Source of the DNA: Planctomycetota bacterium
GTDB taxonomy: Bacteria; Planctomycetota; Planctomycetia; Kolteriales; Kolteriaceae
DNA: 64,000 bases
Direction: 5' to 3'
Assembly: GCA_046350335.1 (NCBI GenBank)
Contig: JAXMAQ010000017.1
Coordinates: 57,165-121,164, forward strand
Part shown: in pieces, positions 23,828 through 59,469 of the stretch
Layout of the letters: the number at the start of each line of letters is the position of its first letter
Numbering within the stretch: the stretch's first letter is position 1
Notes under the pieces: generated by a model
Told to the model about the DNA's origin: nothing
What the model saw: only the letters and a program-made list of their open reading frames with translations
Databases searched by the model: none
Program-made: the position numbers and the translations under genes

Positions 23828-24434
23828 ATGGGGCATTACACTGGCCCTAAGGGACGAATCAATCGACGTTTGGGCGCTTTGATTTACGAAGCCTCGGGGG
23901 CGGCGCGGGCGCTGGAACGGCGCGATTATCCGCCGGGTATGCACACCCGCCGGGGGAAGATGTCCAATTACGGAATTGGGCTCAACGAAAAGCAGAAGAT
24001 CAAGCACTATTATGGCTTGGGCGAGCGGCAGCTCCGTCGGTATTACGAGCGTGCCAGCCGGATGGCGGGCAACACTGGCGAGAACATGCTTTTGATCTGC
24101 GAGCGGCGTTTGGACAACGTCGTCCGACGTGCCGGAAAACCGCGCGTACCCGGTCGCAAGCCCGGCGAAACTTGTTCATTGCCATTTCGCGGTTAATGGC
24201 GTGAAGGTGAACAAGCCATCATTCCTGGTTCGGCCGGGCGACGTCATCACCGTCGTTCAAGTCAAGTTGCAGGGGGTCTATCAGGCGATCATCGATGGCC
24301 TGAAAGCGGATCCCATTCCGTGGGTGAATTTCGAAGCGGATGCTCTTCGCGCCACGGTGACCGGTTATCCTGGGAAGACCGACATCAGCCTCCCCGTTGA
24401 AATCGGGTTGGTTATCGAGTTCATGTCCCGCTAA
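23828..24434 (+). CDS. rpsD: 30S ribosomal protein S4, interrupted by an apparent +1 frameshift at an A4 run (24136-24139)
   Basis: N-terminus MGHYTGPKGRINRRLG…ERRLDNVVRRAG is in one frame (ORF 23828-24196). The S4 domain RAYPVASPAKLVHCHFAVNGVKVNKPSFLVRPGDVITV… is in the +1 frame (ORF 24129-24434). Deleting one A restores a canonical S4. Confidence 0.85.
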
Positions 24435-47532: not shown

Positions 47533-49719
47533 ATGTTTTCAAGTATTGTTCTGTTGGCCCAAGGGCCGACTGCGGACTTCGTGCGCGCATGGCTGGATTG
47601 GCTTGCTAGTCTGGGGCTCATGGCTTCGGTCGCGATTACCAGCCCTATCCTTTACTGGCTCATGTTCCGGTACATACCAAACAACAAAGTGGGAGTGGTG
47701 GAGAAACTCTGGTCGTTCAATGGATCGCTTTGCGAAGGAAACATTGTTGCACTCGAAGGTGAAGCGGGCTTGCAGGCCGATCTGCTTCGAGGTGGACTCC
47801 ACTTCGGCTTTTGGCGTTGGCAGTACCGGGTGCATAAAGCGCCGCTGGTGACGATTCCTCAGGGAAAAATGGGCTACGTCTATTCGCGCGATGGCGATGC
47901 GCTGTCTCCCAACCAAACCTTGGCCCGCGTGGTGGATTGCGAAAACTTCCAGGATGCTCGCGCGTTTCTCACGACCCCCGAAGATGGCATTCGCGGGCAG
48001 AGGGGACGGCAGCGGGCCATACTGCGAGAAGGCGTGTACGCGATCAACCCCGCCATCTTCGTGGTCATTACGGATGACGCGGTGTTTTCGCTGGAGGCCA
48101 TTTCCGATTCCCAAGAACGCCAACTGCTATCCACTTGGCGAACACAGTTGCAGGAGGTTGAAGGCTTCCATCCGGTCGTCGTCGGCAAGCCCCTGGTTTT
48201 CTCCGATCCGCTGAATCCCGACCATTCCATGAATGTCGACGGCATTGGGCTGGTGACGGTCCATGACGGTATTTCTCTCAACCCGGGGGAAATCATCGCG
48301 CCAAGCGTCGGAATGGAACCCACGGAACCGAACTATCACAACAATTTCCAAGATCCTGAAGCATTTCTGCGAGCCGGGGGAAAGCGAGGCCGGCAATACG
48401 TCCCCTTGACCGACGGCACGTATTTCATCAATCGTTGGTTCGCCACCGTCGAGATGATTCCAAAGACGGTAGTCCCGATCGGCTATGTTGGCGTGGTGGT
48501 CAGCTACTACGGACAGGTCGGCCGCGATATTTCCGGAGATGCTTTTCGGCATGGCGAACGAGTTGCCGAAGGCCAACGTGGCGTGTGGCAAAAACCACTG
48601 GGACCGGGCAAATATGCGTTTAACACACTAGCGGGGAGCATCGTGCTCGTGCCGACGACCAACTTCGTCTTGCATTGGGTGACGGGAAAAAGCGAGTCGC
48701 ACCGTTACGATGAAAGCCTCCGTTCCATCGACTTGGTGACGAAAGATGCTTATGAGCCGCTGCTCCCCCTTTCCGTGGTCGTGCACATTGACTACCAGCG
48801 GGCGCCGAGCGTGATTCAGCGGTTTGGCGACGTCAAGAAGTTGATCACGCAGACGCTGGATCCCATGCTCAGCGCTTATTTTCGCGATATCGCCCATCGT
48901 AAGACGATGCTCGAATTACTGCACGAACGGGACTTGATCCAAAAAGAGGCTCGGGACGAACTGCGTCGCAAATTCGGCGAGTTCGACATCGAATGCGTGG
49001 ACGTACTGATCGGCAAACCGTCGCCGAATGAAGGAGATCACAAGATCGAGGATCTATTGGAACAGTTGCGACAGCGACAACTTTCCCACGAGCAGTTGGA
49101 AACGTACGCACGGCAGACGGCGGCCGCGGAAAAGCTTCGGATGTTGAACGAGGCGCAAGCCCACGCGACGATGCAAACACAGCTCACCAACAGTAGGGTG
49201 CAGGTGCAAATCGTCGAAAACCAAGGGGAAGCCGAGTTGGCACGCTCGCGGAAGCAGGCGGAACAAACCGTGGTTTTAGCCGAGGCGGAACTCGCCAGGT
49301 CGCGGCGTCAAGCAGAGCAAACGGTTCTTTTGGCGGAAGCCGATGGGCAAAAGCAAAAGATCTCTGGCCGCGGTGAAGGACAGCGCGTCATGCAGGTAGG
49401 CCTTTCCGAAGCCGCCGTTCTTCTCCGTAAAATCAGTTCGTTTGGCGATCCGAGACTTTTCACCCTGTCCATGGTTGCCGAACATCTGGCCCACAGCGAG
49501 CAACCGCTCGTACCGGAACGACTGTTCGTGGCTGGACAGAATGGTGACGCGCAATCCCAGCTGGGAAATGGAATGCTGGGCATGCTCCTCAGTTTGCTAG
49601 TGGCGGAGAAATCAGGATTCCAACCACCGGATGCCGCGGAGATTCACGGTTTGCAATCGCTCGCGGACCGATTTTCCGAGGATGCCCTTGCTTCCCTTAA
49701 GGAAACGCCGTGCCCTTGA
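47533..49719 (+). CDS. Flotillin-like SPFH/band-7 family protein
   Basis: N-terminal TM, an SPFH domain and a C-terminal flotillin repeat region (ELARSRKQAEQTVVLAEAELARSRRQAEQTVLLAEADGQKQ…); 728 aa. Confidence 0.85.
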   Translation: MFSSIVLLAQGPTADFVRAWLDWLASLGLMASVAITSPILYWLMFRYIPNNKVGVVEKLWSFNGSLCEGNIVALEGEAGLQADLLRGGLHFGFWRWQYRVHKAPLVTIPQGKMGYVYSRDGDALSPNQTLARVVDCENFQDARAFLTTPEDGIRGQRGRQRAILREGVYAINPAIFVVITDDAVFSLEAISDSQERQLLSTWRTQLQEVEGFHPVVVGKPLVFSDPLNPDHSMNVDGIGLVTVHDGISLNPGEIIAPSVGMEPTEPNYHNNFQDPEAFLRAGGKRGRQYVPLTDGTYFINRWFATVEMIPKTVVPIGYVGVVVSYYGQVGRDISGDAFRHGERVAEGQRGVWQKPLGPGKYAFNTLAGSIVLVPTTNFVLHWVTGKSESHRYDESLRSIDLVTKDAYEPLLPLSVVVHIDYQRAPSVIQRFGDVKKLITQTLDPMLSAYFRDIAHRKTMLELLHERDLIQKEARDELRRKFGEFDIECVDVLIGKPSPNEGDHKIEDLLEQLRQRQLSHEQLETYARQTAAAEKLRMLNEAQAHATMQTQLTNSRVQVQIVENQGEAELARSRKQAEQTVVLAEAELARSRRQAEQTVLLAEADGQKQKISGRGEGQRVMQVGLSEAAVLLRKISSFGDPRLFTLSMVAEHLAHSEQPLVPERLFVAGQNGDAQSQLGNGMLGMLLSLLVAEKSGFQPPDAAEIHGLQSLADRFSEDALASLKETPCP

Positions 49720-49996: not shown

Positions 49997-50024
49997 TTTA
50001 CATATCGGAACATTCCGATATATT
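49997..50024 (+). promoter_or_regulatory. Sigma70-like promoter (TTTACA-N16-TATATT) with an embedded 9-bp inverted-repeat operator ATATCGGAA-ca-TTCCGATAT
   Basis: Read directly from sequence. The palindrome occupies the spacer, a classic repressor-occluded architecture. It sits 180 nt upstream of the rhodanese gene that begins the sulfur cluster. Confidence 0.4.
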
Positions 50025-50146
50025 GAATAGTAGAGGGCAAAAGGGTGTGGCGGCGAGCGGATGGCGCAGACGCCACGTTGTTTGGGTAAGGCGTTCCCTG
50101 GGCTCTCGAAGGGGATGCGCGGACTCAAAAAATTTTCCGACAAAAG

Positions 50147-50170
50147 ATAGAAAGGTTCCGATCTTTCTAT
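50147..50170 (+). promoter_or_regulatory. Inverted repeat ATAGAAAG-gttccgat-CTTTCTAT (candidate operator) 32 nt upstream of the rhodanese ATG
   Basis: Perfect 8-bp arms. The spacer contains the TTCCGAT half-site shared with the upstream operator. Confidence 0.35.
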
Positions 50171-50201
50171 TGTTTGCGTCGTGAGGAATCCGGAGGAAGT
50201 C

Positions 50202-50801
50202 ATGAACATCACCACCATCTCCCCGAAACAGTTGAACGATGCTGTCCAGGCGGATCCAGCGATCGAGTTGATCGATGTGCGGACCCCTGTGGAATTTCGC
50301 GAAATGCACGTCAGGTTCGCGCGTAACGTCCCACTGGATCGTCTCGCGAAGGACCCGTCCATCATGGATCGCAAGGGAACGTCCAATCCCCTCTACGTGA
50401 TCTGCCGCTCGGGAAGCCGGGGCAAGCAAGCGTGCGAAAAGCTGATCGCCGCTGGCGTCACGAACGTGGTCAATGTGGAGGGAGGCACGCAGGCGTGGGA
50501 CGAAGCGGGACTCCCGGTCGTGAAAGGTCAAAAGGCGGTTTCCCTCGAACGGCAGGTACGCATCGCAGCGGGTTCGTTGGTGCTTCTCGGCTCCGCCTTG
50601 GCGTTCTTCGTCAGCCCCTATTGGATCGGGCTGGCGGCCTTCGTGGGAGCCGGTCTGGTGTCTGCGGGCGTTACCGACACCTGTGGCATGGCGATGTTGC
50701 TGGCACGGCTGCCATGCAACCAAGTCCGTCACCGCGCTGGGGACAAGGCCAAGGAAACCATGTTTTGCAAGACAAGTTCGAAACCGAAATGTTGTGCCTG
50801 A
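50202..50801 (+). CDS. Rhodanese-domain / DUF2892 membrane protein (YgaP-like sulfurtransferase)
   Basis: A GGAGGA ribosome-binding site is present. The CRSGSRG active-site loop is followed by a two-TM DUF2892 region with C-terminal cysteines. Confidence 0.8.
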   Translation: MNITTISPKQLNDAVQADPAIELIDVRTPVEFREMHVRFARNVPLDRLAKDPSIMDRKGTSNPLYVICRSGSRGKQACEKLIAAGVTNVVNVEGGTQAWDEAGLPVVKGQKAVSLERQVRIAAGSLVLLGSALAFFVSPYWIGLAAFVGAGLVSAGVTDTCGMAMLLARLPCNQVRHRAGDKAKETMFCKTSSKPKCCA

Positions 50802-50858
50802 GCTCCTCGCGTGACGGCGCGTCCGGAGGGTCAAGCGGCTGCAAAGGGAGAAGTCACC

Positions 50859-51197
50859 ATGTCCTTGATTAACCGGAGTCTCGAAAAAAACATTTGCACG
50901 CTTGGTATTACTGATCGCCCATTCCCGTGCTGGTGGATTTTTATGCCAACTGGTGCGGACCTTGCTGCCGTTAGCGCCCCGTCGCTCGAACGATTAGCCA
51001 GCAGATTCACCGGTCGCGTGAAGATCGTCAAGGTCGACGTCGACGAGGAGCATGAACTGGCGAACGAGTTTCACGTGGCGTCGATTCCGACTTTGGCATT
51101 CTTCGCGGAAGGAAAATTCGTCGGCAAAACCGCAGATGCCTCGTGCCGGAAGGGGGCTGCGAAAAGTTTTGAATCGGCTTGCGGCGGAGAGGATTGA
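50859..51197 (+). pseudogene. trxA: Thioredoxin, disrupted by three (possibly four) single-base frameshifts
   Basis: Three pieces sit in three frames: MSLINRSLEK|TFARLVLL, then SPIPVLVDFYANWCGPC, then VSAPSLERLASRFTGRVKIVKVDVDEEHELANEFHVASIPTLAFFAEGKFVGK. Shifts fall at an A7 run (50884-50890), at CTGA (50911-50914) and at the WCGPC active site (about 50953-50960). ERIDK in an alternative 3' frame hints at a further shift. Confidence 0.6.
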
Positions 51198-51356
51198 CAA
51201 GCGCCACGTTGGCACGTCCTCCACGGGCACTAACGCCGCGACTACCTGGCGGAATGGATAAAAGGGATTCCGCCCGGCTGGAAGGGACTTTCACCAGCTC
51301 GGCGACGCAAAACTCTTGATGGTCGCTCGGCAAGATTTGATGACGGAGAACCAATC

Positions 51357-52775
51357 ATGATTCTGAAACAGTATTATCTCGGCTGCCTGTCTCATGCCTC
51401 CTACTTGGTCGCGGACGAGAAGACGAAAATCGCGGCGGTCGTCGATCCTCAGCGGGACGTCGAACAATACCTGCGTGACGCGGCGGAGGGTGGCTATTCC
51501 ATTCGCTACGTCTTTCTGACGCATTTCCACGCGGATTTTCTCGCCGGGCACATTGAATTGCACTAATCGAACGAATGCCGAGATCGTGATGGGAGCACGA
51601 GCACTGGCGGTTCGCCAAACTCCGCGGCGAACGATGGCGATTGCTTCAACTTGGGGGAGGTCCGAATCCAAATCTTGGAAACTTCGGGGCACACTCCCGA
51701 AGGGATCTCACTACTCGTATTCGATAAATCCCAAAACGAATCGTCGCCCCAAGCAGCCCGGTGTTGACGGGGGACACGCTTTTCATCGGCGACGTCAGTC
51801 GTCCCGACCTCTTGGCGTCCATCGGCGTGACGGCGGATGAATTGGCCGAAATGCTTTACCATTCGCTCAGCAAACTGCGCTGATTGCCGGACGACACGCT
51901 CGTTTATCCGCGCACGGCGCTGAGTCGATGTGTGGCAGAGTCTGAGCAAGGAAACGGTTTCGACGATCGGGGTGCAAAAGCGTTTCAGTGCGCGCTCCAA
52001 CCCATGAGTCTCGACGATTTCGAAGCGACTGGTGACGGCGGATCGGCCAGGCGGCGGACTATTTCGTGTATGACGCCATCAAGAATCGTCAGGAACGTCC
52101 CGATCTTGAAGCGACGCTTCGCTCTTCACTCAAGGCCTTGTCCGTCGACGACGCCCTTGGGTTGGCTCAGGGCGCGCGGTGGTGGACGTTCGAGAGGCCA
52201 TCGACTTCGAAGGAGCACATCTCGCGGGCGCGATCAATATCGGCCTAAAGGGAAAGTATGCGACCTGGTGTGGCTCGGTGCTCAGCCATGCTCATCCCAT
52301 CGTGGTCATTGCAGATCCAGGTAGCGAAGTGGAGGCCATCACGCGGCTCGGCCGCATTGGCTTTGACAATGTGGCTGGATTCCTCGGTGACGGCATGGCG
52401 GCCTTGGAAAACCGCCCGGAACTTCTGCGGCGCATACCTCGGATCACTGCCGCCACGCTCGCAGAACTGTTGGCCGAGCCGAATCCACCTTACGTCTTGG
52501 ACGTGCGCTCGGAGAAAGAATGGCAATCGGGCCACGTGGACGGCAGTCACAATATTCCGCTGAATCGTCTTCGCGAACGAATTTCGGAAGTGCCTGCGAA
52601 CCGTCCGGTGATCGTGCATTGCGAAGGGGGGTATCGTTCGGCGATCGGCGCCAGTCTCTTGGCGGAGGCGGGCCGAAGCAACGTGACTGACCTGGTGGGC
52701 GGGTACAAGGCCTGGCTCGCGTCGAAATTGCCGGTGCAATCGGAGACGGCCTGCTATTGCCGCTTGGAAAAGTAA
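51357..52775 (+). pseudogene. Persulfide dioxygenase (MBL-fold ETHE1-like) - rhodanese fusion gene, disrupted by about 6-7 frameshifts
   Basis: Colinear fragments across all three frames: THFHADFLAGHIEL; [12 protein letters not shown]; [18 protein letters not shown]; [20 protein letters not shown]; LPDDTLVYP; FQCALQPMSLDDFEA; DYFVYDAIKNRQERPDLE; then an intact rhodanese domain VVDVREAIDFEGAHLAGAIN…HCEGGYRSAIGASL (ORF 52179-52775). Confidence 0.7.
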
Positions 52776-53045
52776 GACGTTCATGGCTGCAATGAACTCC
52801 CTCTCTCGGCGGAGAGCCGCAATAAACTCGTTCTCCCGCCGGGAGAAGGGCGGGGTGATGGGCCTTTACACGACAAACCTGCGCGTATCCCACTCCCCAG
52901 CAACGTAGCGGCATTACTGTTCCGAAGCTCAATGGCACGCGTGAAAGCGTTCAGTCGGAATCGGCGGTTTTCCTGGGCTGGAACGTCATTGCGCATGGGT
53001 CGAATGGACTTTCGGCCGCGGCGTGGAAGAACGAGAACTCACGGG

Positions 53046-53880
53046 ATGGGGGAATTCGACGTGTCACCGCTTACCTTCTTCTTTGGCGCCTTGGTGGGTT
53101 TTTCCCTCGGGCTCACGGGGGGAGGAGGGGCGATCTTTGCCGTCCCGCTGCTCGTCTACGGCTTGGGAGTCCCCGCGCGTGAAGCGGTCGGTGTCTCCTT
53201 GTTGACAGTGGGAGCCACTTCGCTGGTCGGCTTCTTGCATCGCGCGAGACATCGCATGGTCGAGTTTCCGACTGGTTTGTTGTTCGCGGCGGCGGGCATG
53301 ATTAGTGCGCCCGTGGGCGCGCTGGCCGCCGATCGAATTCCGGAGCCCTTTCTGCTCACGTTGTTCGCCGGCCTCATGGTCGTGATCGCCGCACGGATGT
53401 GGAAGTCAGCCGCGGAGTCGACGTTTCGATTGCCCATCGTCACCGACGAAAACAAGGGGCCCACGTGCCGACGCGATCCGGAAGGAAAACTCCGCCTGAC
53501 GTCGCGATGTGCCATGCTGTTGTTGCTCATTGGCCTGGGAGCAGGCGTTCTGTCGGGTCTGTTCGGCGTCGGTGGCGGATTCATCATCGTGCCCGCCTTG
53601 GTCTTCTTTAGCAGCATGGGAATCCAGCGGGCCATCGGTACTTCGCTCTGGTCATCACTCTGATCGGCGCCCTCTGGAACGGCGAGTCATCTTCTGGCGG
53701 GCAAGGATCTTTCCATTGCGATCGCGGCGTTATTCACGGCTGGAAGCCTCGCCGGCGCCTCTATGTGGGAACTGGACTGGCACGGCGGCTCGCCGGCTTG
53801 TCCTGCAGAAGGTGTTCGCGATCGCGATTTTGCTCGTTTCCGCGTTCGTCTTGTTTCGCACGCTCGGCGGGGTTTGGTGA
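53046..53880 (+). pseudogene. TauE/SafE-family sulfite/anion exporter, C-terminal third disrupted by four or more frameshifts
   Basis: N-terminus is intact (GALVGFSLGLTGGGGAIFAVPLLVY…). Between 53648 and 53800 the sequence hops frames 0, 2, 0, 2, 1: AIGTSL / VITLIGAL / SGTASHLLAGKDLSIAIAALFTAGSLAGASMWEL / TGLARRLAG / RLVLQKVFAIAILLVSAFVLFRTLGGVW. Confidence 0.65.
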
Positions 53881-53920
53881 GGAGTTTCGCCGCATCCTGA
53901 AATATCGGGATTTTAATCCA

Positions 53921-54487
53921 ATGGCTTCGATTCGCGAGGGGAATATGCGTCTAACGTCAATGTTGATGGCGTGCCTGCTTGTGGGCGTAACGCTTGGGGC
54001 CGGGAAGGAAGGATCGGACCTTCGGTTTCCGCGAATCGCCGACTTTGGCGGCGTCGTTGACGTGCCTGGTGCCGTCGAGCCGCCTCGCCGGGGAACCAAA
54101 ATCGTCTTTGATGTCCTCGCGGAAGGGAAGCCGGCGGAACTGAATAAGGGACTCGAAAGCGTCGCGCGCTACCTGAATCTGAATGCAACTGCTGGTAACC
54201 CGCACACGGAGGTCACGCTCGCGGTCGTTTTGCATGGCGGAGCGACGCGAGTCGCGCTCGATGACCCGGCCTATGCACGAGTAACGGGAAATGCAAAGAA
54301 CCCCAACCTCCCCTTGATCCTGGCTTTGAAAAAGTCGGGGGTTGAAGTCCTGGTTTGTGGACAATCCCTCGCCCGGCATGATTTCTCGACATCGGAGGTG
54401 GCTGCGGGCATTGACGTCGCCGTCTCCGCAATGACCGTGAACGCAAACAAGCAACAAGACGGTTACTCCTACATCGTGATTCCTTAA
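53921..54487 (+). CDS. DsrE/DsrF-like family protein (secreted)
   Basis: Signal peptide, then …KIVFDVLAEGK…VVLHGGATRVALDD…LVCGQSLARH… fits the DsrE fold. Confidence 0.55.
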   Translation: MASIREGNMRLTSMLMACLLVGVTLGAGKEGSDLRFPRIADFGGVVDVPGAVEPPRRGTKIVFDVLAEGKPAELNKGLESVARYLNLNATAGNPHTEVTLAVVLHGGATRVALDDPAYARVTGNAKNPNLPLILALKKSGVEVLVCGQSLARHDFSTSEVAAGIDVAVSAMTVNANKQQDGYSYIVIP

Positions 54488-54501
54488 TCGGAGGGCTCGC
54501 C

Positions 54502-55056
54502 ATGAGAAAAACAACTGGCGTTCGCTTGGCGACGATCGGCTTGGGATGGATCCTGCTCACGTCCGTCATTCACGCCGAAGAAGGAGGGCAGGGACACCGG
54601 GGTCGCGGCTCGTCGGGACGTGGTCGGGGCGGCGATCCCGCGTTTGTCGAAGATCGGAAGATCTTTCATCAGCTGCTCCAGCATCGCGATTCCATCCGTC
54701 GGGAGGTCAAAAACACCGAGTATGGCGTCGAGACGATTACCGAGTCGGACGATCCGAAGGTAGCCTCGCTCATTCAGCTGCACGTCGCTTCGATGAAAAG
54801 ACGGGTCGAGGAACGGCGCCCGATCCATCAGCGAGATCCCCTCTTCGCGGCCCTATTTCAACACGCGGACGAGATTCAGTTCACCTTCGAAAGGACCGCG
54901 AAAGGGGTTCGCGTGAAGGAAACCTCGGAGGATCCATACGTCGCAACGCTCATTCAAGGGCACGCTCGGGTCGTCTCTTGGTTTATCGAGCGTGGACCCG
55001 ATGAAGTACATCGCAACCATGAAGCACCCGCGAAAAAGAAAGAGGCGAATCCATGA
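54502..55056 (+). CDS. Hypothetical secreted protein with internal duplication (DPxVAxLIQxH repeats)
   Basis: Signal peptide, a Gly/Arg-rich linker and two about 60-aa repeats (…ESDDPKVASLIQLHVASMKRRVEE… / …TSEDPYVATLIQGHARVVSWFIER…). Confidence 0.5.
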   Translation: MRKTTGVRLATIGLGWILLTSVIHAEEGGQGHRGRGSSGRGRGGDPAFVEDRKIFHQLLQHRDSIRREVKNTEYGVETITESDDPKVASLIQLHVASMKRRVEERRPIHQRDPLFAALFQHADEIQFTFERTAKGVRVKETSEDPYVATLIQGHARVVSWFIERGPDEVHRNHEAPAKKKEANP

Positions 55057-56255
55057 CAAACTCTTCCATCAAAAATCATTATCAGGTGTTGATTCTCGGC
55101 GGTGGCTCGGCGGGCATCACGGTGGCGGCCCGTTTTCTTAAAAAGCTCAAAGGGGGCGATGTCGGCATCGTCGAGCCTTCCACCAAGCACTATTACCAGC
55201 CGCTCTGGACGCTCGTCGGCGCCGGTGTCTTTCCCAAAGAGATTACGCAGCGGGACGAGGCCTCGTTCATTCCGCGAAGGGCCGACTGGATTCGGGAGGC
55301 GGTTCATGACATCCATCCCGACGACAACTGCGTCACCACGTCGAGCGGACGCCGGATAAGTTATGACTTCCTCGTCGTCGCGTTGGGGATCCAGATCGAT
55401 TGGGGGAAGATTCCCGGTCTCAAGGAAGGGCTTGGCAGCCACGAAATCTGCAGCAATTATTCCTACCAGCACGTCGACTATACCTGGAAATGCGTGAGCG
55501 GTTTCAGAGGGGGGACCGCGCTTTTCACGATGCCCAGCACGGCGGTCAAGTGTGGCGGGGCGCCTCAAAAGATCATGTATCTTGCCGATGATTCCTTTCG
55601 CCGATCGGGCGTGCGGGACAAGTCTCGCGTTCTCTTCGCCTCCGCTCAAGGATCCCTTTTCGCCGTCGAACGGTACCGGCGGACTTTGGAAAAGGTCGCG
55701 TCGCGCAAGGGAATCGATGTTCGCCTCAAGCACAACCTCGTCGAACTGAAGCCCGAGCGGAAGGAAGCGGTTTTCGAGCATTTGGAAACGAAGGAACGGA
55801 TAACGATTCCCTTCGACATGATCCACGTCACTCCTCCGATGAGCGCTCCCGACGTCATCAAGAGAAGTCCGTTGGCGAACGAGGCGGGCTGGGTTGATGC
55901 GGACAAATACACGCTGCGGCATCCCACCTATGCGAACGTCTTTTCGATCGGGGATTGCAGTGGTTTGCCGACGTCTAAAACGGCGGCGGCGATTCGCAAA
56001 CAAGCGCCGGTGGTCGTGGAGAATCTCGTTGCCGCGATCCACGGTCGGCCGATCGAGGCTCGGTATGACGGCTATACCTCTTGTCCGCTTGTCACGGGAT
56101 ATGGCAAGCTGGTGCTCGCGGAGTTCGATTACGAAGGCCAGCCGACGGAGACCTTCCCTTTCGACCAGTCCAAGGAACGCCTTTCGATGTATCTGCTCAA
56201 GGCCCATGCCCTACCGAGGCTCTATTGGCATGGCATGCTCCGCGGCCGCGCCTGA
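55053..56255 (+). CDS. sqr: Sulfide:quinone oxidoreductase, type II (SQRDL-like)
   Basis: VLILGGGSAG FAD motif, HYYQPLWTLVGAG, and the redox Cys residues in KCGGAPQK and GDCSGLPTSKT. Its ATG overlaps the upstream stop (ATGA). Confidence 0.85.
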   Translation: MTNSSIKNHYQVLILGGGSAGITVAARFLKKLKGGDVGIVEPSTKHYYQPLWTLVGAGVFPKEITQRDEASFIPRRADWIREAVHDIHPDDNCVTTSSGRRISYDFLVVALGIQIDWGKIPGLKEGLGSHEICSNYSYQHVDYTWKCVSGFRGGTALFTMPSTAVKCGGAPQKIMYLADDSFRRSGVRDKSRVLFASAQGSLFAVERYRRTLEKVASRKGIDVRLKHNLVELKPERKEAVFEHLETKERITIPFDMIHVTPPMSAPDVIKRSPLANEAGWVDADKYTLRHPTYANVFSIGDCSGLPTSKTAAAIRKQAPVVVENLVAAIHGRPIEARYDGYTSCPLVTGYGKLVLAEFDYEGQPTETFPFDQSKERLSMYLLKAHALPRLYWHGMLRGRA

Positions 56256-57031: not shown

Positions 57032-58155
57032 CTATGATTCTCGGGTAATCCTTTCCTGGCCGGGCACGGTGTTTGAGCGGCACTGGGCGCGCCACCGGAG
57101 CCAATGATCGGCAAGCACCAAGGCGACCATCGCCTCTCCCATGGGGACGAATCGAGGCAGAAGGCAGGGGTCATGCCGTCCTTTGGTCGCGATCTCGGTG
57201 GGAGTGCCTGCTTGGGTCACGGTGGGCTGTGGTTTGGACAAGCTGCTCGTCGGTTTGATGGCGACGCGGCAGACGATGGGCAAGCCGCTGCTGATCCCGC
57301 CGAGCATGCCTCCGTGTCGATTGCCCGTCGTGGTGATGTTGCCTTCTTGTTGAACGAAAGGATCGTTGTTTTCGCTTCCTTGGAGGTGGCGACGGCGAAT
57401 CCGGCCCCATATTCAGTGCCGACGACGGCGGGGAGCGAGAGGAGGGCTTCGGCCAGATCCGCCTTTAATTTGTCGAAGACCGGCTCGCCGAGTCCCGGCG
57501 GAACGCCGACCGCGACCAGTTCACTCACCCCGCCAATCGAGTCCTGGTCCAGCCTTACCTCGTCGATCAAGGCGATCATCTTCTCCGCAGCTGCCGGGTC
57601 GGGACACCGTACGATGTTGGACTCAACGGATTCCAGCGTTACCGAAGCCGGATCGGAAACGGAAGCGACGATATTGCCGACCTGTTTGGTGTAGGCGAGA
57701 ACGCGAATCCCTTCGGCAGCGAGGAGTTTTTTGGCGACGGCGCCGGCGGCGACCCGGGCCACCGTCTCGCGCGCGGAGGAGCGACCTCCCCCGCGATAAT
57801 CCCGAAAGCCGTATTTGGCGTCGAACGTGTAGTCCGCGTGCCCTGGTCGATACTTGTCCTTGATGTCCGAGTAATCTCGGCTCCGTTGATCGGTATTGCG
57901 AAATAGGATGGCGACCGAGGTGCCGGTTGTCTTTCCTTCGAACACGCCCGAAAGGATTTCCGGAGCGTCCGCTTCGTCTCGCTGGGTGGTGATTTTCGAT
58001 TGTCCGGGCCGTCGTCGAGCCAGGTCCGGCTCGAGATCCGCTTCGGAGAGAGGAATTCCAGGCGGGACCCCGTCGATGATGACGACGTTCCCCGGGCCAT
58101 GCGATTCGCCCGCCGTCGTGATGCGAAAAAGTTGCCCGAAACTGTTACCTGCCAC
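57032..58155 (-). CDS. aroC: Chorismate synthase, with one apparent frameshift (about 57383-57386)
   Basis: N-terminal part [20 protein letters not shown]…[14 protein letters not shown]… lies in the frame of ORF 57217-58236. The conserved C-terminus …[13 protein letters not shown]…[10 protein letters not shown]…[30 protein letters not shown] lies in the frame of ORF 57032-57307. The N-terminal frame after the shift contains implausible sequence. Confidence 0.8.
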
Positions 58156-58325
58156 AATCCCTACTCGCGAGTGCCAGAAAAGAAACCCGGGCACCGGCCA
58201 AAGATGTCCCAAAAGGCTTGGACGTGGAAACTTCATCGATCCACGCGATCAGCCGCTGGTCATCATATGGAATTCCGCGAGGGGGGCGTTCCGGCGCTCT
58301 GGCCGCCGACGTTTTTCACGAAAGA

Positions 58326-59469
58326 TTAGTACTCGTCAATGATTTCCCGGTCGCGCCAGGTGGAGCCATCGATGGTGTTGAGCTTATAGAAAAGGCCCGG
58401 GTCGATGGAGTTGTCGCGGAAATCGACCGTCCCGTCACCGAAAAGGAAATTGGCGCCCCCAGGATGGGAGCTGGAGAAGACGAACGGTCGGGGGAGCCGC
58501 GGATTGACGGTGGAAGTCGTGTCGGGCGCGTTGATCTTGTAGAACTCGGCTTGTGGGTGTCCCGGCGGATAGACGACCCCATGACAGCTGCCGAAGGTGC
58601 CTCCTCCCCAGAAAGTACCGGAGTTCGGTTCGCTAAGGACTTGTAGCGATTCGCCGACCGCAATGGTTTTATGCACGCCGTCGGTGATTCGTTCGTTGTT
58701 CGCTGCTCCGTTGTTGCCGAACATTCCCATGGGGGGAAACAGCTGATCGCGGGGAAGTTGATCAACGGCCTTGCTGGCGGCTTTCGCTAGCGATTGAGCC
58801 TTGCGCACGCGATTGTGCACGTAGAATCCGTAGGTGTTGCTGTATTCGTCGTACTCGCCGGTCGCGAACCGATAATTGGATCTGCGGGCGTTGCTGGCGG
58901 AATACTTGGCGGTCAGATTCGTGGGCTCAAAGGTTGAGAAATCGGGCTCGGAATCGCTGGGGCAGGTGTAGGCCGCGATGCGGACGCTGACGGCGGTGAT
59001 GCAATTCTGATTGATCTTGTCTTGGACGGAGAGGCCCGCGGGTGTTAAAGGCGCGAGGTCCGTATAGGGACGAGTTAAACGCGCTGGCGCTCGAGGGATA
59101 ATTGTGGTCGTACAGGTCGTAGACGGCATCTTGTTCCAGAAAGGGGAGCAGCAAGAGCCAGCCGGTGGTATTCTGTACCGCCGCCGAGGATCGGCGGCAT
59201 TCCCGGTGCTGTTCGCAGGGTTGTATCTCCGGACAATTTCCTCCGGGAGCAATAGGCGGGGTTGATTTGGCAGGGTAAACCTTGTGACTTTCGTGATAGG
59301 TGCCCAGCGCGTTGCCGATGTTGCAGAAGGTTATTCTGAAGCATTGCGACGGCGAGCCCTTCGCGAACGTAACTGACCGCGGGGAGCAAAATGGCCCGAG
59401 GACACCGATGATGCTGATGACCACCAAAACTTCGATGAGCGTGAATCCCCAGCGCGCGGGTTTTGGCAT
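58326..59469 (-). CDS. DUF1559 protein (prepilin-type N-terminal cleavage/methylation domain plus H-X9-DG motif), with one frameshift
   Basis: N-terminus MPKPARWGFTLIEVLVVISIIGVLG, then …GWLLLLPFLEQDAVYDLYDHNYPSS in the frame of ORF 58927-59469. …YTCPSD…HPGGANFLFGDG (H-X9-DG) is in the frame of ORF 58326-59252. The shift is near plus-strand 59050-59090. Confidence 0.7.

Follow-up and report, generated by a model that had tools for sequence, protein, structure and literature searches.

Seven co-oriented genes on the plus strand of the analysed stretch of DNA, a 64,000-nucleotide segment of a Planctomycetota contig (hereafter the window), encode a YgaP-like rhodanese, a thioredoxin, a CstB-like persulfide dioxygenase, a putative TauE/SafE-family exporter, a DsrE-like protein, a secreted two-repeat protein and a predicted type II sulfide:quinone oxidoreductase (SQR). 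This gene content, proposed in an earlier sequence-only reading, is borne out by Pfam and homology searches. The genes and the elements that precede them are:

49997..50024, plus strand: sigma-70-type promoter, TTTACA-16 nt-TATATT, scoring 10/12 in a promoter scan
50005-50018, plus strand: palindrome TCGGAAcaTTCCGA, lying in and filling the promoter spacer, upstream of the operon
50156..50161, plus strand: further conserved TTCCGA box, immediately upstream of ygaP, invariant in a 5-locus alignment
50181/50202-50801, plus strand: intact YgaP-like membrane rhodanese (Pfam Rhodanese + DUF2892/YgaP_TM)
50859..51261, plus strand: thioredoxin (WCGPC), in at least three frames as given (Pfam fragment; frameshift-aware alignment to the thioredoxin of locus L055)
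51357..52775, plus strand: CstB-like (type III) persulfide dioxygenase, frameshifted as given (Pfam; frame-corrected structure-sequence matches)
53046..53880, plus strand: putative TauE/SafE-family (DUF81) anion exporter, 3' end frameshifted as given (Pfam)
53945..54487, plus strand: intact DsrE-like protein (Pfam DsrE, 2e-12), with an alternative start ATG at 53921
54502..55056, plus strand: intact secreted two-repeat protein of 184 aa (ortholog alignment)
55053..56255, plus strand: intact predicted type II SQR (homology), with an ATGA overlap with the two-repeat gene

The several 4-nt ATGA overlaps described in the sequence-only reading reduce to the single junction between the two-repeat gene and sqr (55053-56), the remaining intergenic gaps being 57, 95, 270, about 64-76 and 14 nt. 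The region would form a single transcription unit starting at the conserved sigma-70 promoter with its palindromic operator spacer.

Protein families encoded at the locus

The SQR aligns with human SQOR (6MP5/6OI5) at 6.7e-142 across residues 8-398 of 400; its matches to the Aquifex SQR, the Acidithiobacillus SQR and FCSD reach only 1e-11 to 1e-16. Both aligned cysteines are retained, with the segments AVKCGGAPQK and YTSCPLVTGY corresponding to VKCAGAPQK and YTSCPLVTGY of human SQOR, and we take these to be the catalytic redox-active cysteines. The FAD-binding GxGxxG motif is present near the N-terminus as ILGGGSAG (residues 13-20). Full-length homology, the cysteines and the FAD motif together predict that the flavoprotein is a type II, SQOR-like SQR, closer to characterised type II enzymes than to type I/V SQR or flavocytochrome c.

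The first gene encodes a YgaP-type membrane rhodanese, recognized by the Pfam Rhodanese (2.6e-15) and YgaP-like_TM (2.9e-08) profiles, with an active-site CRSGSRG motif conserved in 44 orthologs, a C-terminal CC motif and 65-76% identity to its orthologs across the full length. Like the SQR and the DsrE-like protein, which had also been described as intact, it is full length relative to its orthologs, as is the two-repeat protein. The thioredoxin that follows, as given, matches only positions 37-92 of its Pfam profile in one frame, and its reading frame is broken; once frame-corrected it displays the thioredoxin fold and scores 97.2 bits against TIGR01068 (cut-off 96.8), with the WCGPC motif falling within the frame-2 segment. 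Its gene accompanies the operon only occasionally, occupying the same slot in L055 and lying inside the cluster in L125.

The dioxygenase consists of an MBL-fold domain, a middle rhodanese-like domain and a C-terminal rhodanese. After frame correction it matches 3TP9 over its full length (residues 1-463, 3e-79) and the S. aureus structure 3R2U over residues 1-453 (3e-54). The metal-binding HxHxD motif, in the form THFHADF, falls within the undamaged 5' part of the gene, and the rhodanese active-site motif HCEGGYRS within the undamaged 3' part. The TauE-like protein as given covers positions 2-173 of the 237 of its Pfam profile in one frame (130.5 bits), the remainder being recovered only after correction of four indels; a frameshift-aware alignment to the TauE of locus L001 yields 206 identical positions of 262.

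The DsrE-like protein contains a VCGQ cysteine that is nearly invariant in a 28-ortholog alignment, and an N-terminal hydrophobic signal-like segment that is unusual for the DsrE/TusD family; it has no match in NCBIfam and no PDB sequence match below E = 0.8. Each repeat of the two-repeat protein comprises a helix, a β-hairpin and a long helix (AF2 core pLDDT 97-99). In its alignment, certain His, Met, Arg and Asp positions are invariant and no Cys is conserved, and searches of Pfam, NCBIfam and PDB sequences, as well as a structural fold comparison, returned no match for this unnamed family of 215 homologs. As a guess, the secreted DsrE-like and two-repeat proteins might handle periplasmic sulfur species or a metal.

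Conservation, operator and regulator

The genes for the YgaP-like, CstB-like, TauE, DsrE-like and two-repeat proteins and for SQR are found intact and in the same order in loci L001, L003, L006, L008 and L020, and over 20 other Planctomycetota loci show close variants of this order. The comparison of orthologous loci places these genes as conserved neighbours in dozens of loci. The SQR shares as much as 81% identity with Pirellulales orthologs (80.5% with that of L001), and the closest relatives overall reach at most 81% amino acid identity in the genome scan and at most 82% in the metagenome scan, neither of which yielded a near-identical intact copy for comparison. An exact look-up of the SQR gave no match, and a cluster look-up returned only the MAG's own proteins, in one-member clusters at 90% identity. 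A 118-aa cluster mate, P0005, is only ~85% identical, and its short contig is also split. Two further loci of the same operon, L022 and L025 from Microflora Danica MAGs, are similarly fragmented; these MAGs are presumably long-read assemblies.

A compact sulfide operon of this kind is not new to Planctomycetes, being common in Pirellulales MAGs, and a 2017 study had tallied both type II SQR and type III PDO across Planctomycetes genomes (PMC5702731, Table 1). The suggestion that, if the indels were unreal, the locus would be a complete and compact operon in a Planctomycete is favoured by the evidence set out below.

Upstream of the genes, the layout TTGACAnnTCGGAAnnTTCCGATATA(A/T)T is found a single time in each of 14 related loci, invariably upstream of the operon, and the palindrome TCGGAAcaTTCCGA in the promoter spacer is likely to be a repressor operator. 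A gene for an ArsR-family protein of ~105 aa is the first after the conserved promoter in 13 of the 14 operator-carrying loci; over the first 80 loci as a whole, the count is 19. This protein matches BigR (3PQJ) at 1.5e-9 and SqrR (6O8L) at 1.6e-9. In our locus the operator is present, and a tblastn search found no such regulator gene anywhere in the window. The regulator gene is genuinely absent at this locus, implying that some real remodelling of it has occurred.

Distribution and origin of the indels

The frameshifts noted earlier in the thioredoxin, dioxygenase and tauE genes are present in the sequence as given, amounting to at least 17 indels of 1-2 bases plus one stop codon. They are confined to three sub-gene patches that add up to ~1 kb, the remainder of the same genes being clean:

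50875..51150, no strand: patch A, thioredoxin, at least four frame changes, at about 50875, 50912, 50966 and 51150 (frameshift-aware alignment)
51564..52174, no strand: patch B, dioxygenase, ~9 indels, at 51564, 51610, 51756, 51911, 51937, 51990, 52022, 52050 and 52174, and a TGA at 51881 (ortholog alignment)
53646..53798, no strand: patch C, tauE, four indels in 152 nt, at 53646, 53672, 53757 and 53798 (frameshift-aware alignment)

Patch B deprives the dioxygenase of an uninterrupted frame as the sequence stands, a break that we judge to be an assembly artefact. In patch A, substitutions at conserved sites appear from the final ~50 codons of the ygaP gene onwards. The confinement of the indels was assessed with within-gene range tests, in which the nine indels of the dioxygenase are restricted to 610 nt out of 1419 (p = 0.006) and the four of tauE to 152 nt out of 829 (p = 0.02); the probability of finding all 17 in 17% of the operon is post hoc and was not relied on. 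The dioxygenase gene is free of indels over its first 220 nt and its last 575 nt, which together show one change in 107 conserved columns. Mismatches at columns conserved in 90% or more of orthologs number 7 of 99 in patch B, 1 of 38 and 0 of 69 in the dioxygenase flanks, and 7 of 464 in the pooled non-patch parts of the operon (patch B versus pooled, p = 0.005); this enrichment of substitutions at ortholog-conserved residues pertains to patch B, the sole patch big enough to test. The substitutions of invariant residues include P110S, G148S and G190E.

Similar damage is seen elsewhere in the window. The rpsD gene contains two -1 shifts 29 nt apart (~24137 and ~24166), aroC a -1 shift at ~57384, a DUF1501 gene lies in at least three frames and a DUF1559 gene is split. 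The errors cluster in 20.4-24.2 kb and 50.9-59.2 kb, the other parts of the window being clean. This frame map derives from a coarse codon-usage Viterbi tracing, with Pfam used to examine each suspected break; most of these were simply ordinary gene boundaries.

Because damage of this type affects the essential rpsD as well as aroC and the DUF1501 and DUF1559 genes, and because it is patchy within genes whose corrected products are as conserved as their intact neighbours (the frame-corrected dioxygenase and TauE are each 79% identical to their L001 counterparts, as compared to 80.5% for the intact SQR), the indels in the thioredoxin, dioxygenase and tauE genes are very probably sequencing or assembly errors. 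The derivation of the contig from a MAG also counts toward this reading, as does the similar fragmentation of L022 and L025. On the whole, we consider it quite probable that this is a complete operon of the known SQR-PDO kind, with frameshifts that represent low-quality consensus patches of a MAG contig, and the organism most likely carries the operon intact.

Some observations run against an artefact. The simplest error signature, that of long homopolymers, is absent: the indel contexts contain no long homopolymers, which neither proves nor excludes long-read error. Such indel clusters are also rare in short-read de Bruijn assemblies, and a concentration of damage in non-essential accessory genes is likewise expected from real decay. 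The absence of the regulator gene, as a sign of real remodelling at the locus, counts on this side too.

A mixed origin, in which most changes are consensus errors and a subset, such as the TGA at 51881 or the thioredoxin disruptions, represents real strain variation collapsed into a chimeric consensus, appears unlikely. The MAG source and the grouping of errors into two broad regions, a pattern expected where variable regions have lower or mixed coverage, are consistent with it, and the loss of an occasional operon member like the thioredoxin would be tolerable; against this, no sequence feature separates a real subset, the patches being alike in density and type. Still more doubtful is real pseudogenisation, namely that the lineage is losing the thioredoxin, dioxygenase and tauE genes and keeping sqr and the dsrE-like and ygaP-like genes. 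The presence of all three broken genes in one operon beside four intact neighbours, the accompanying substitutions of invariant residues in patch B and the missing cis-encoded regulator, which could fit a locus in flux, speak for such decay, but neutral decay would spread across whole genes rather than remain in sub-gene patches, damage of the same type hits aroC, two further genes and rpsD, whose breakage is unexpected in a viable cell, and the corrected proteins have the same identity to orthologs as the intact neighbours. Programmed frameshifting or transcriptional slippage bypassing the frame changes, for which only the good conservation of the in-frame segments speaks, is effectively refuted by the uninterrupted frames in all 46 of 46 orthologs, and the ~9 changes within 610 nt are of both signs and lie in unrelated contexts without slippery motifs.

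Returning to consensus error as the preferred reading, the proposal that the steps downstream of SQR are being dismantled finds no support and dissolves once the same frameshift patches are recognized in rpsD and aroC. This also serves as a caution that pseudogene calls on this and similar MAGs are untrustworthy without reads.

Predicted pathway and relation to known systems

The protein families and their conserved neighbourhood support the suggested logic of cst and sqr-pdo systems, in which sulfide would be converted via persulfide to sulfite or thiosulfate and exported. The type II SQR would oxidize H2S, placing sulfane sulfur on a thiol acceptor and passing electrons to the quinone pool, and the YgaP-like rhodanese may transfer sulfane sulfur between carriers. 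The Fe(II) dioxygenase part of the CstB-like protein would convert persulfide to sulfite, which its C-terminal rhodanese could combine with persulfide to form thiosulfate. TauE is predicted to export the oxyanions, and the thioredoxin might reduce persulfidated or oxidised thiols. What emerges is a Planctomycete form of the SQR-PDO sulfide-oxidation operon, conserved together with its promoter and predicted operator. Two items stand out: an unnamed secreted two-repeat family linked to type II SQR, and an ArsR-type regulator that the window lacks.

In terms of regulation, the locus resembles the BigR/SqrR operons in the ArsR-family regulator of its relatives and the palindromic operator overlapping the promoter, and differs in that the window keeps the operator without the regulator gene. 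From its sequence, the regulator of the relatives appears to have no Cys at the position of BigR Cys42, with other cysteines present instead. Tentatively, these features might be combined in a version of the system with a periplasmic accessory pair of the DsrE-like and the His/Met-rich two-repeat proteins and an ArsR-family repressor acting on TCGGAA-NN-TTCCGA through persulfide-sensing cysteines other than those of BigR/SqrR, this regulator having been lost here. If true, its loss in the MAG would make expression of the operon constitutive.

In its set of parts, the locus corresponds to the known cst, yrk and sqr-pdo clusters. The S. aureus cst operon consists of cstR, cstA, cstB and sqr, with tauE alongside, and the present locus shares its logic by combining a type II SQR, a three-domain CstB-type dioxygenase-rhodanese and TauE in one cluster. 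The same composition of the S. aureus operon is cited in PMC9918477. The window differs in having neither a CsoR-family CstR nor TusA; in place of the fused CstA (rhodanese-TusA-DsrE) there are a separate membrane-anchored YgaP-like rhodanese and a DsrE-like protein with a signal-like N-terminus, and the thioredoxin and two-repeat protein are additional. The locus would work like cst and is not a member of the S. aureus cst operon type, given that CstR and the fused CstA are absent from the window.

The yrk cluster has near-identical parts, namely the DsrE homologue YrkE, the rhodanese YrkF, the PDO YrkH, the TauE protein YrkJ, the thioredoxin YdfQ and an SQR. It is distinguished by a CstR-like repressor along with NreBC regulation and by TusA, lacks the two-repeat protein and the YgaP-type membrane anchor, and has a different gene order. 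The human mitochondrial unit (SQOR, ETHE1 and rhodanese) is related through the full-length homology of its SQR with retained aligned active-site cysteines; its dioxygenase is of the ETHE1 type (type I), in contrast to the CstB type (type III) found here, and the bacterial version adds the operon organization, the exporter and the accessory proteins.

Gene content and conservation of the sulfide operon

The seven genes between 49997 and 56255 all lie on the plus strand, and Pfam domains together with ortholog comparison bear out the gene content proposed by the sequence-only reading:

50181-50801, +, rhodanese and YgaP-like transmembrane domains (ygaP-like; Pfam)
50811-51197, +, thioredoxin fragment (trx; Pfam)
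51357-51566, +, MBL-fold fragment, 5' part of the dioxygenase gene (Pfam)
52179-52775, +, two rhodanese domains, 3' part of the dioxygenase gene (Pfam)
52932-53663, +, TauE (tauE; Pfam)
53765-54487, +, DsrE (dsrE-like; Pfam)
54502-55056, +, two-repeat gene with a 184-aa product (no Pfam match)
55053-56255, +, Pyr_redox_2 (sqr; Pfam)

An ATGA overlap is found only at the final junction, between the two-repeat gene and sqr, and not at several junctions as had been proposed; the remaining gaps measure 57, 95, 270, about 64-76 and 14 nt. Between the dioxygenase gene and tauE, the 270-nt spacer (52776-53045) is unusually long, its counterpart in the related locus L001 being only about 30 nt, and harbours a pair of GC-rich hairpins, CTCTCTCGGCGGAGAG and TTCTCCCGCCGGGAGAA. 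At their C terminus, the operon's YgaP-like proteins carry a conserved Cys-Cys (50780-50801), which reads ..KCCA in the window and ..SCCG or ..SCCR in most relatives; in their ARMPWNQV motif, the Trp shared by at least 90% of orthologs is replaced by Cys in the window. Upstream of the operon, a c-di-AMP riboswitch (RF00379; 47265-47432, +) matches the full model at 56.3 bits (gathering score 38) and directly precedes a 728-aa SPFH/Band-7 gene (47533-49719). The window also carries DUF1501, DUF1559 and PSCyt2/PSD1 genes, consistent with its assignment to the Planctomycetota.

A genome scan with the SQR as query recovered 80 loci, the best of which belong to Pirellulales/Pirellulaceae MAGs with 70-81% identity. 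Five of these related loci (L001, L003, L006, L008 and L020) share the order ygaP-like, dioxygenase, tauE, dsrE-like, two-repeat gene and sqr, with all genes intact and encoding a dioxygenase with two rhodanese domains (~490 aa), TauE (~270 aa), and DsrE-like and two-repeat proteins of ~180 aa each. Close variants of the cluster occur in more than 20 further Planctomycetota loci, and in Firmicutes loci sqr adjoins a dioxygenase-rhodanese gene. The thioredoxin gene lies between ygaP and the dioxygenase gene in the related locus L055, and downstream of the two-repeat gene in another, L125. This shared order indicates that the genes are conserved neighbours rather than a chance arrangement of unrelated ones.

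Residues 8-398 of the window SQR align with human SQOR (6.7e-142), and both cysteines aligning with the active-site pair of the latter are retained; judged by this alignment, it is a type II enzyme. It lacks a signal peptide, given that the FAD motif begins at residue 13. 3TP9 (3e-79) and 3R2U of S. aureus (3e-54) both align with the whole of the frame-corrected dioxygenase, which on this homology is of the CstB or type III persulfide dioxygenase (PDO) kind (class as in PMC5702731). The frame-corrected thioredoxin reaches NCBIfam TIGR01068 and contains WCGPC, while both the DsrE-like and two-repeat proteins start with a hydrophobic signal-like segment.

These family memberships and the conserved neighbours argue that the functional reading offered earlier, from sulfide through persulfide and sulfite to export, is right. 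By analogy with characterized families, SQR would oxidize sulfide to sulfane sulfur with reduction of quinone, rhodanese-type carriers would shuttle the sulfane sulfur, and the CstB-like enzyme would convert persulfide to sulfite, its rhodanese domain making thiosulfate. TauE would then export the anion and thioredoxin would repair persulfidated thiols. The signal-like segments suggest that the DsrE-like and two-repeat proteins may act across the membrane from SQR.

The two-repeat protein has 215 homologues, all unnamed and devoid of Pfam domains, save two fusions to a YgaP-like transmembrane domain. Invariant His, Met, Arg, Asp, Pro, Leu, Phe, Gly, Thr, Ser and Glu residues are present in the family, with no invariant Cys. 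A confident AlphaFold model (core pLDDT 97-99) predicts two copies of a unit made up of a helix, a beta-hairpin and a long helix. The gene is usually beside sqr and sometimes alone; homologues outside sulfide operons include L126 2075-2743 and L124 6001-6567, and one adjoins an RND (ACR_tran) efflux pump. Together with the invariant His and Met, this neighbour hints that the protein binds metal instead of carrying sulfur.

Origin of the frameshifts

Frameshift-aware protein-to-DNA alignment against L001 placed about nine indels in the dioxygenase gene (51564, 51610, 51756, 51911, 51937, 51990, 52022, 52050 and 52174), along with a TGA stop at 51881, four in tauE (53646, 53672, 53757 and 53798), and, against the L055 thioredoxin, at least four frame changes in trx (about 50875 to 51150). 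Once corrected, the dioxygenase and TauE are 79% identical to L001 (363/462 and 206/262, respectively), comparable to the intact SQR (80.5%).

The sequence-only reading had suggested that, should the indels be real, the pathway is being dismantled downstream of SQR, a view that the distribution of damage does not support. All nine dioxygenase indels are confined to 610 nt of a 1419-nt gene (p = 0.006), leaving the first 220 and last 575 nt clean, and the four in tauE to 152 nt out of 829 (p = 0.02). At columns conserved in at least 90% of 46 aligned dioxygenase orthologs, the window shows 7/99 mismatches within the patch (51564-52174) as against 1/38 and 0/69 in its flanks, and 7/464 in all non-patch parts of the operon pooled (p = 0.005). 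Such confinement of substitutions counts against decay, because a dead gene decaying neutrally would accumulate changes along its whole length.

Comparable damage affects other genes of the window. The ribosomal protein S4 gene rpsD (23828-24434, +) is split between its two Pfam domains, with -1 shifts at about 24137 and, 29 nt further on, at about 24166; the shifts were placed by alignment to an E. coli S4 sequence, of which the Pfam split is independent. A viable cell would not be expected to carry this double frameshift, which is the strongest sign that the frameshifts in the window are technical. The chorismate synthase gene aroC (57032-58236, -) has a single -1 shift at about 57384, placing Pfam positions 1-238 and 258-327 in different frames. 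Three or more frames are needed to read a DUF1501 gene (20391 to about 21500, -), and a DUF1559 gene (58326-59469, -), whose product has an N-terminal methylation motif, is split. Damage is concentrated in two broad regions, at 20.4-24.2 kb and at 50.9-59.2 kb; outside them the window looks clean, and some 20 other genes checked across it give complete domain matches. Two Microflora Danica MAG loci (L022 and L025), which we take to be long-read assemblies, carry the same operon with genes (ygaP, dioxygenase, tauE and dsrE) broken up among several frames, illustrating how common such artefacts are. Given the within-gene clustering, the patch-bound substitutions, the same damage elsewhere in the window and the origin of the sequence as a MAG consensus, the indels very probably represent low-quality consensus patches in an operon that is intact in the organism.

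Promoter, likely operator and the absent regulator

The promoter TTTACA-16-TATATT (49997-50024), whose start marks the left edge of the region, has as its spacer the palindrome TCGGAAcaTTCCGA, a likely repressor operator. The same layout, TTGACAnnTCGGAAnnTTCCGATATA(A/T)T, occurs exactly once per locus in 14 related loci, always upstream of the operon. In 13 of these 14, and in a total of 19 among the first 80 loci, the first gene past the promoter encodes a ~105-aa ArsR-family protein, which matches BigR (1.5e-9) and SqrR (1.6e-9):

L001 5432-5776, ArsR-family regulator gene
L055 5895-6209, ArsR-family regulator gene

No such gene was found in the window, where, within 50026-50155, about 110 nt of unrelated sequence takes its place; L087, another related locus, likewise lacks it. 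Still present in the window are the promoter with its operator and, adjoining ygaP, a conserved TTCCGA box (50156-50161). The operon would be constitutive if the genome has no copy of the regulator elsewhere.

Relationship to known systems

The operon matches the parts list of the S. aureus cst operon, from which it differs in lacking CstR and a fused CstA, and is hence not a strict cst operon. Closer still is the yrk-sqr-pdo cluster of B. licheniformis, which holds a DsrE homologue, a rhodanese, PDO, TauE, thioredoxin and SQR (PMC9918477). A 2017 tabulation of Planctomycetes genomes already lists type II SQR and type III PDO (2 SQR and 4 PDO in 6 genomes; PMC5702731, Table 1). Given these matching parts lists and prior records, the operon belongs to an already known kind of system; what novelty remains comes from the family of unnamed secreted proteins, from an operator that is embedded in the promoter and partnered by an ArsR-type regulator, and from loss of the gene for this regulator in the window.
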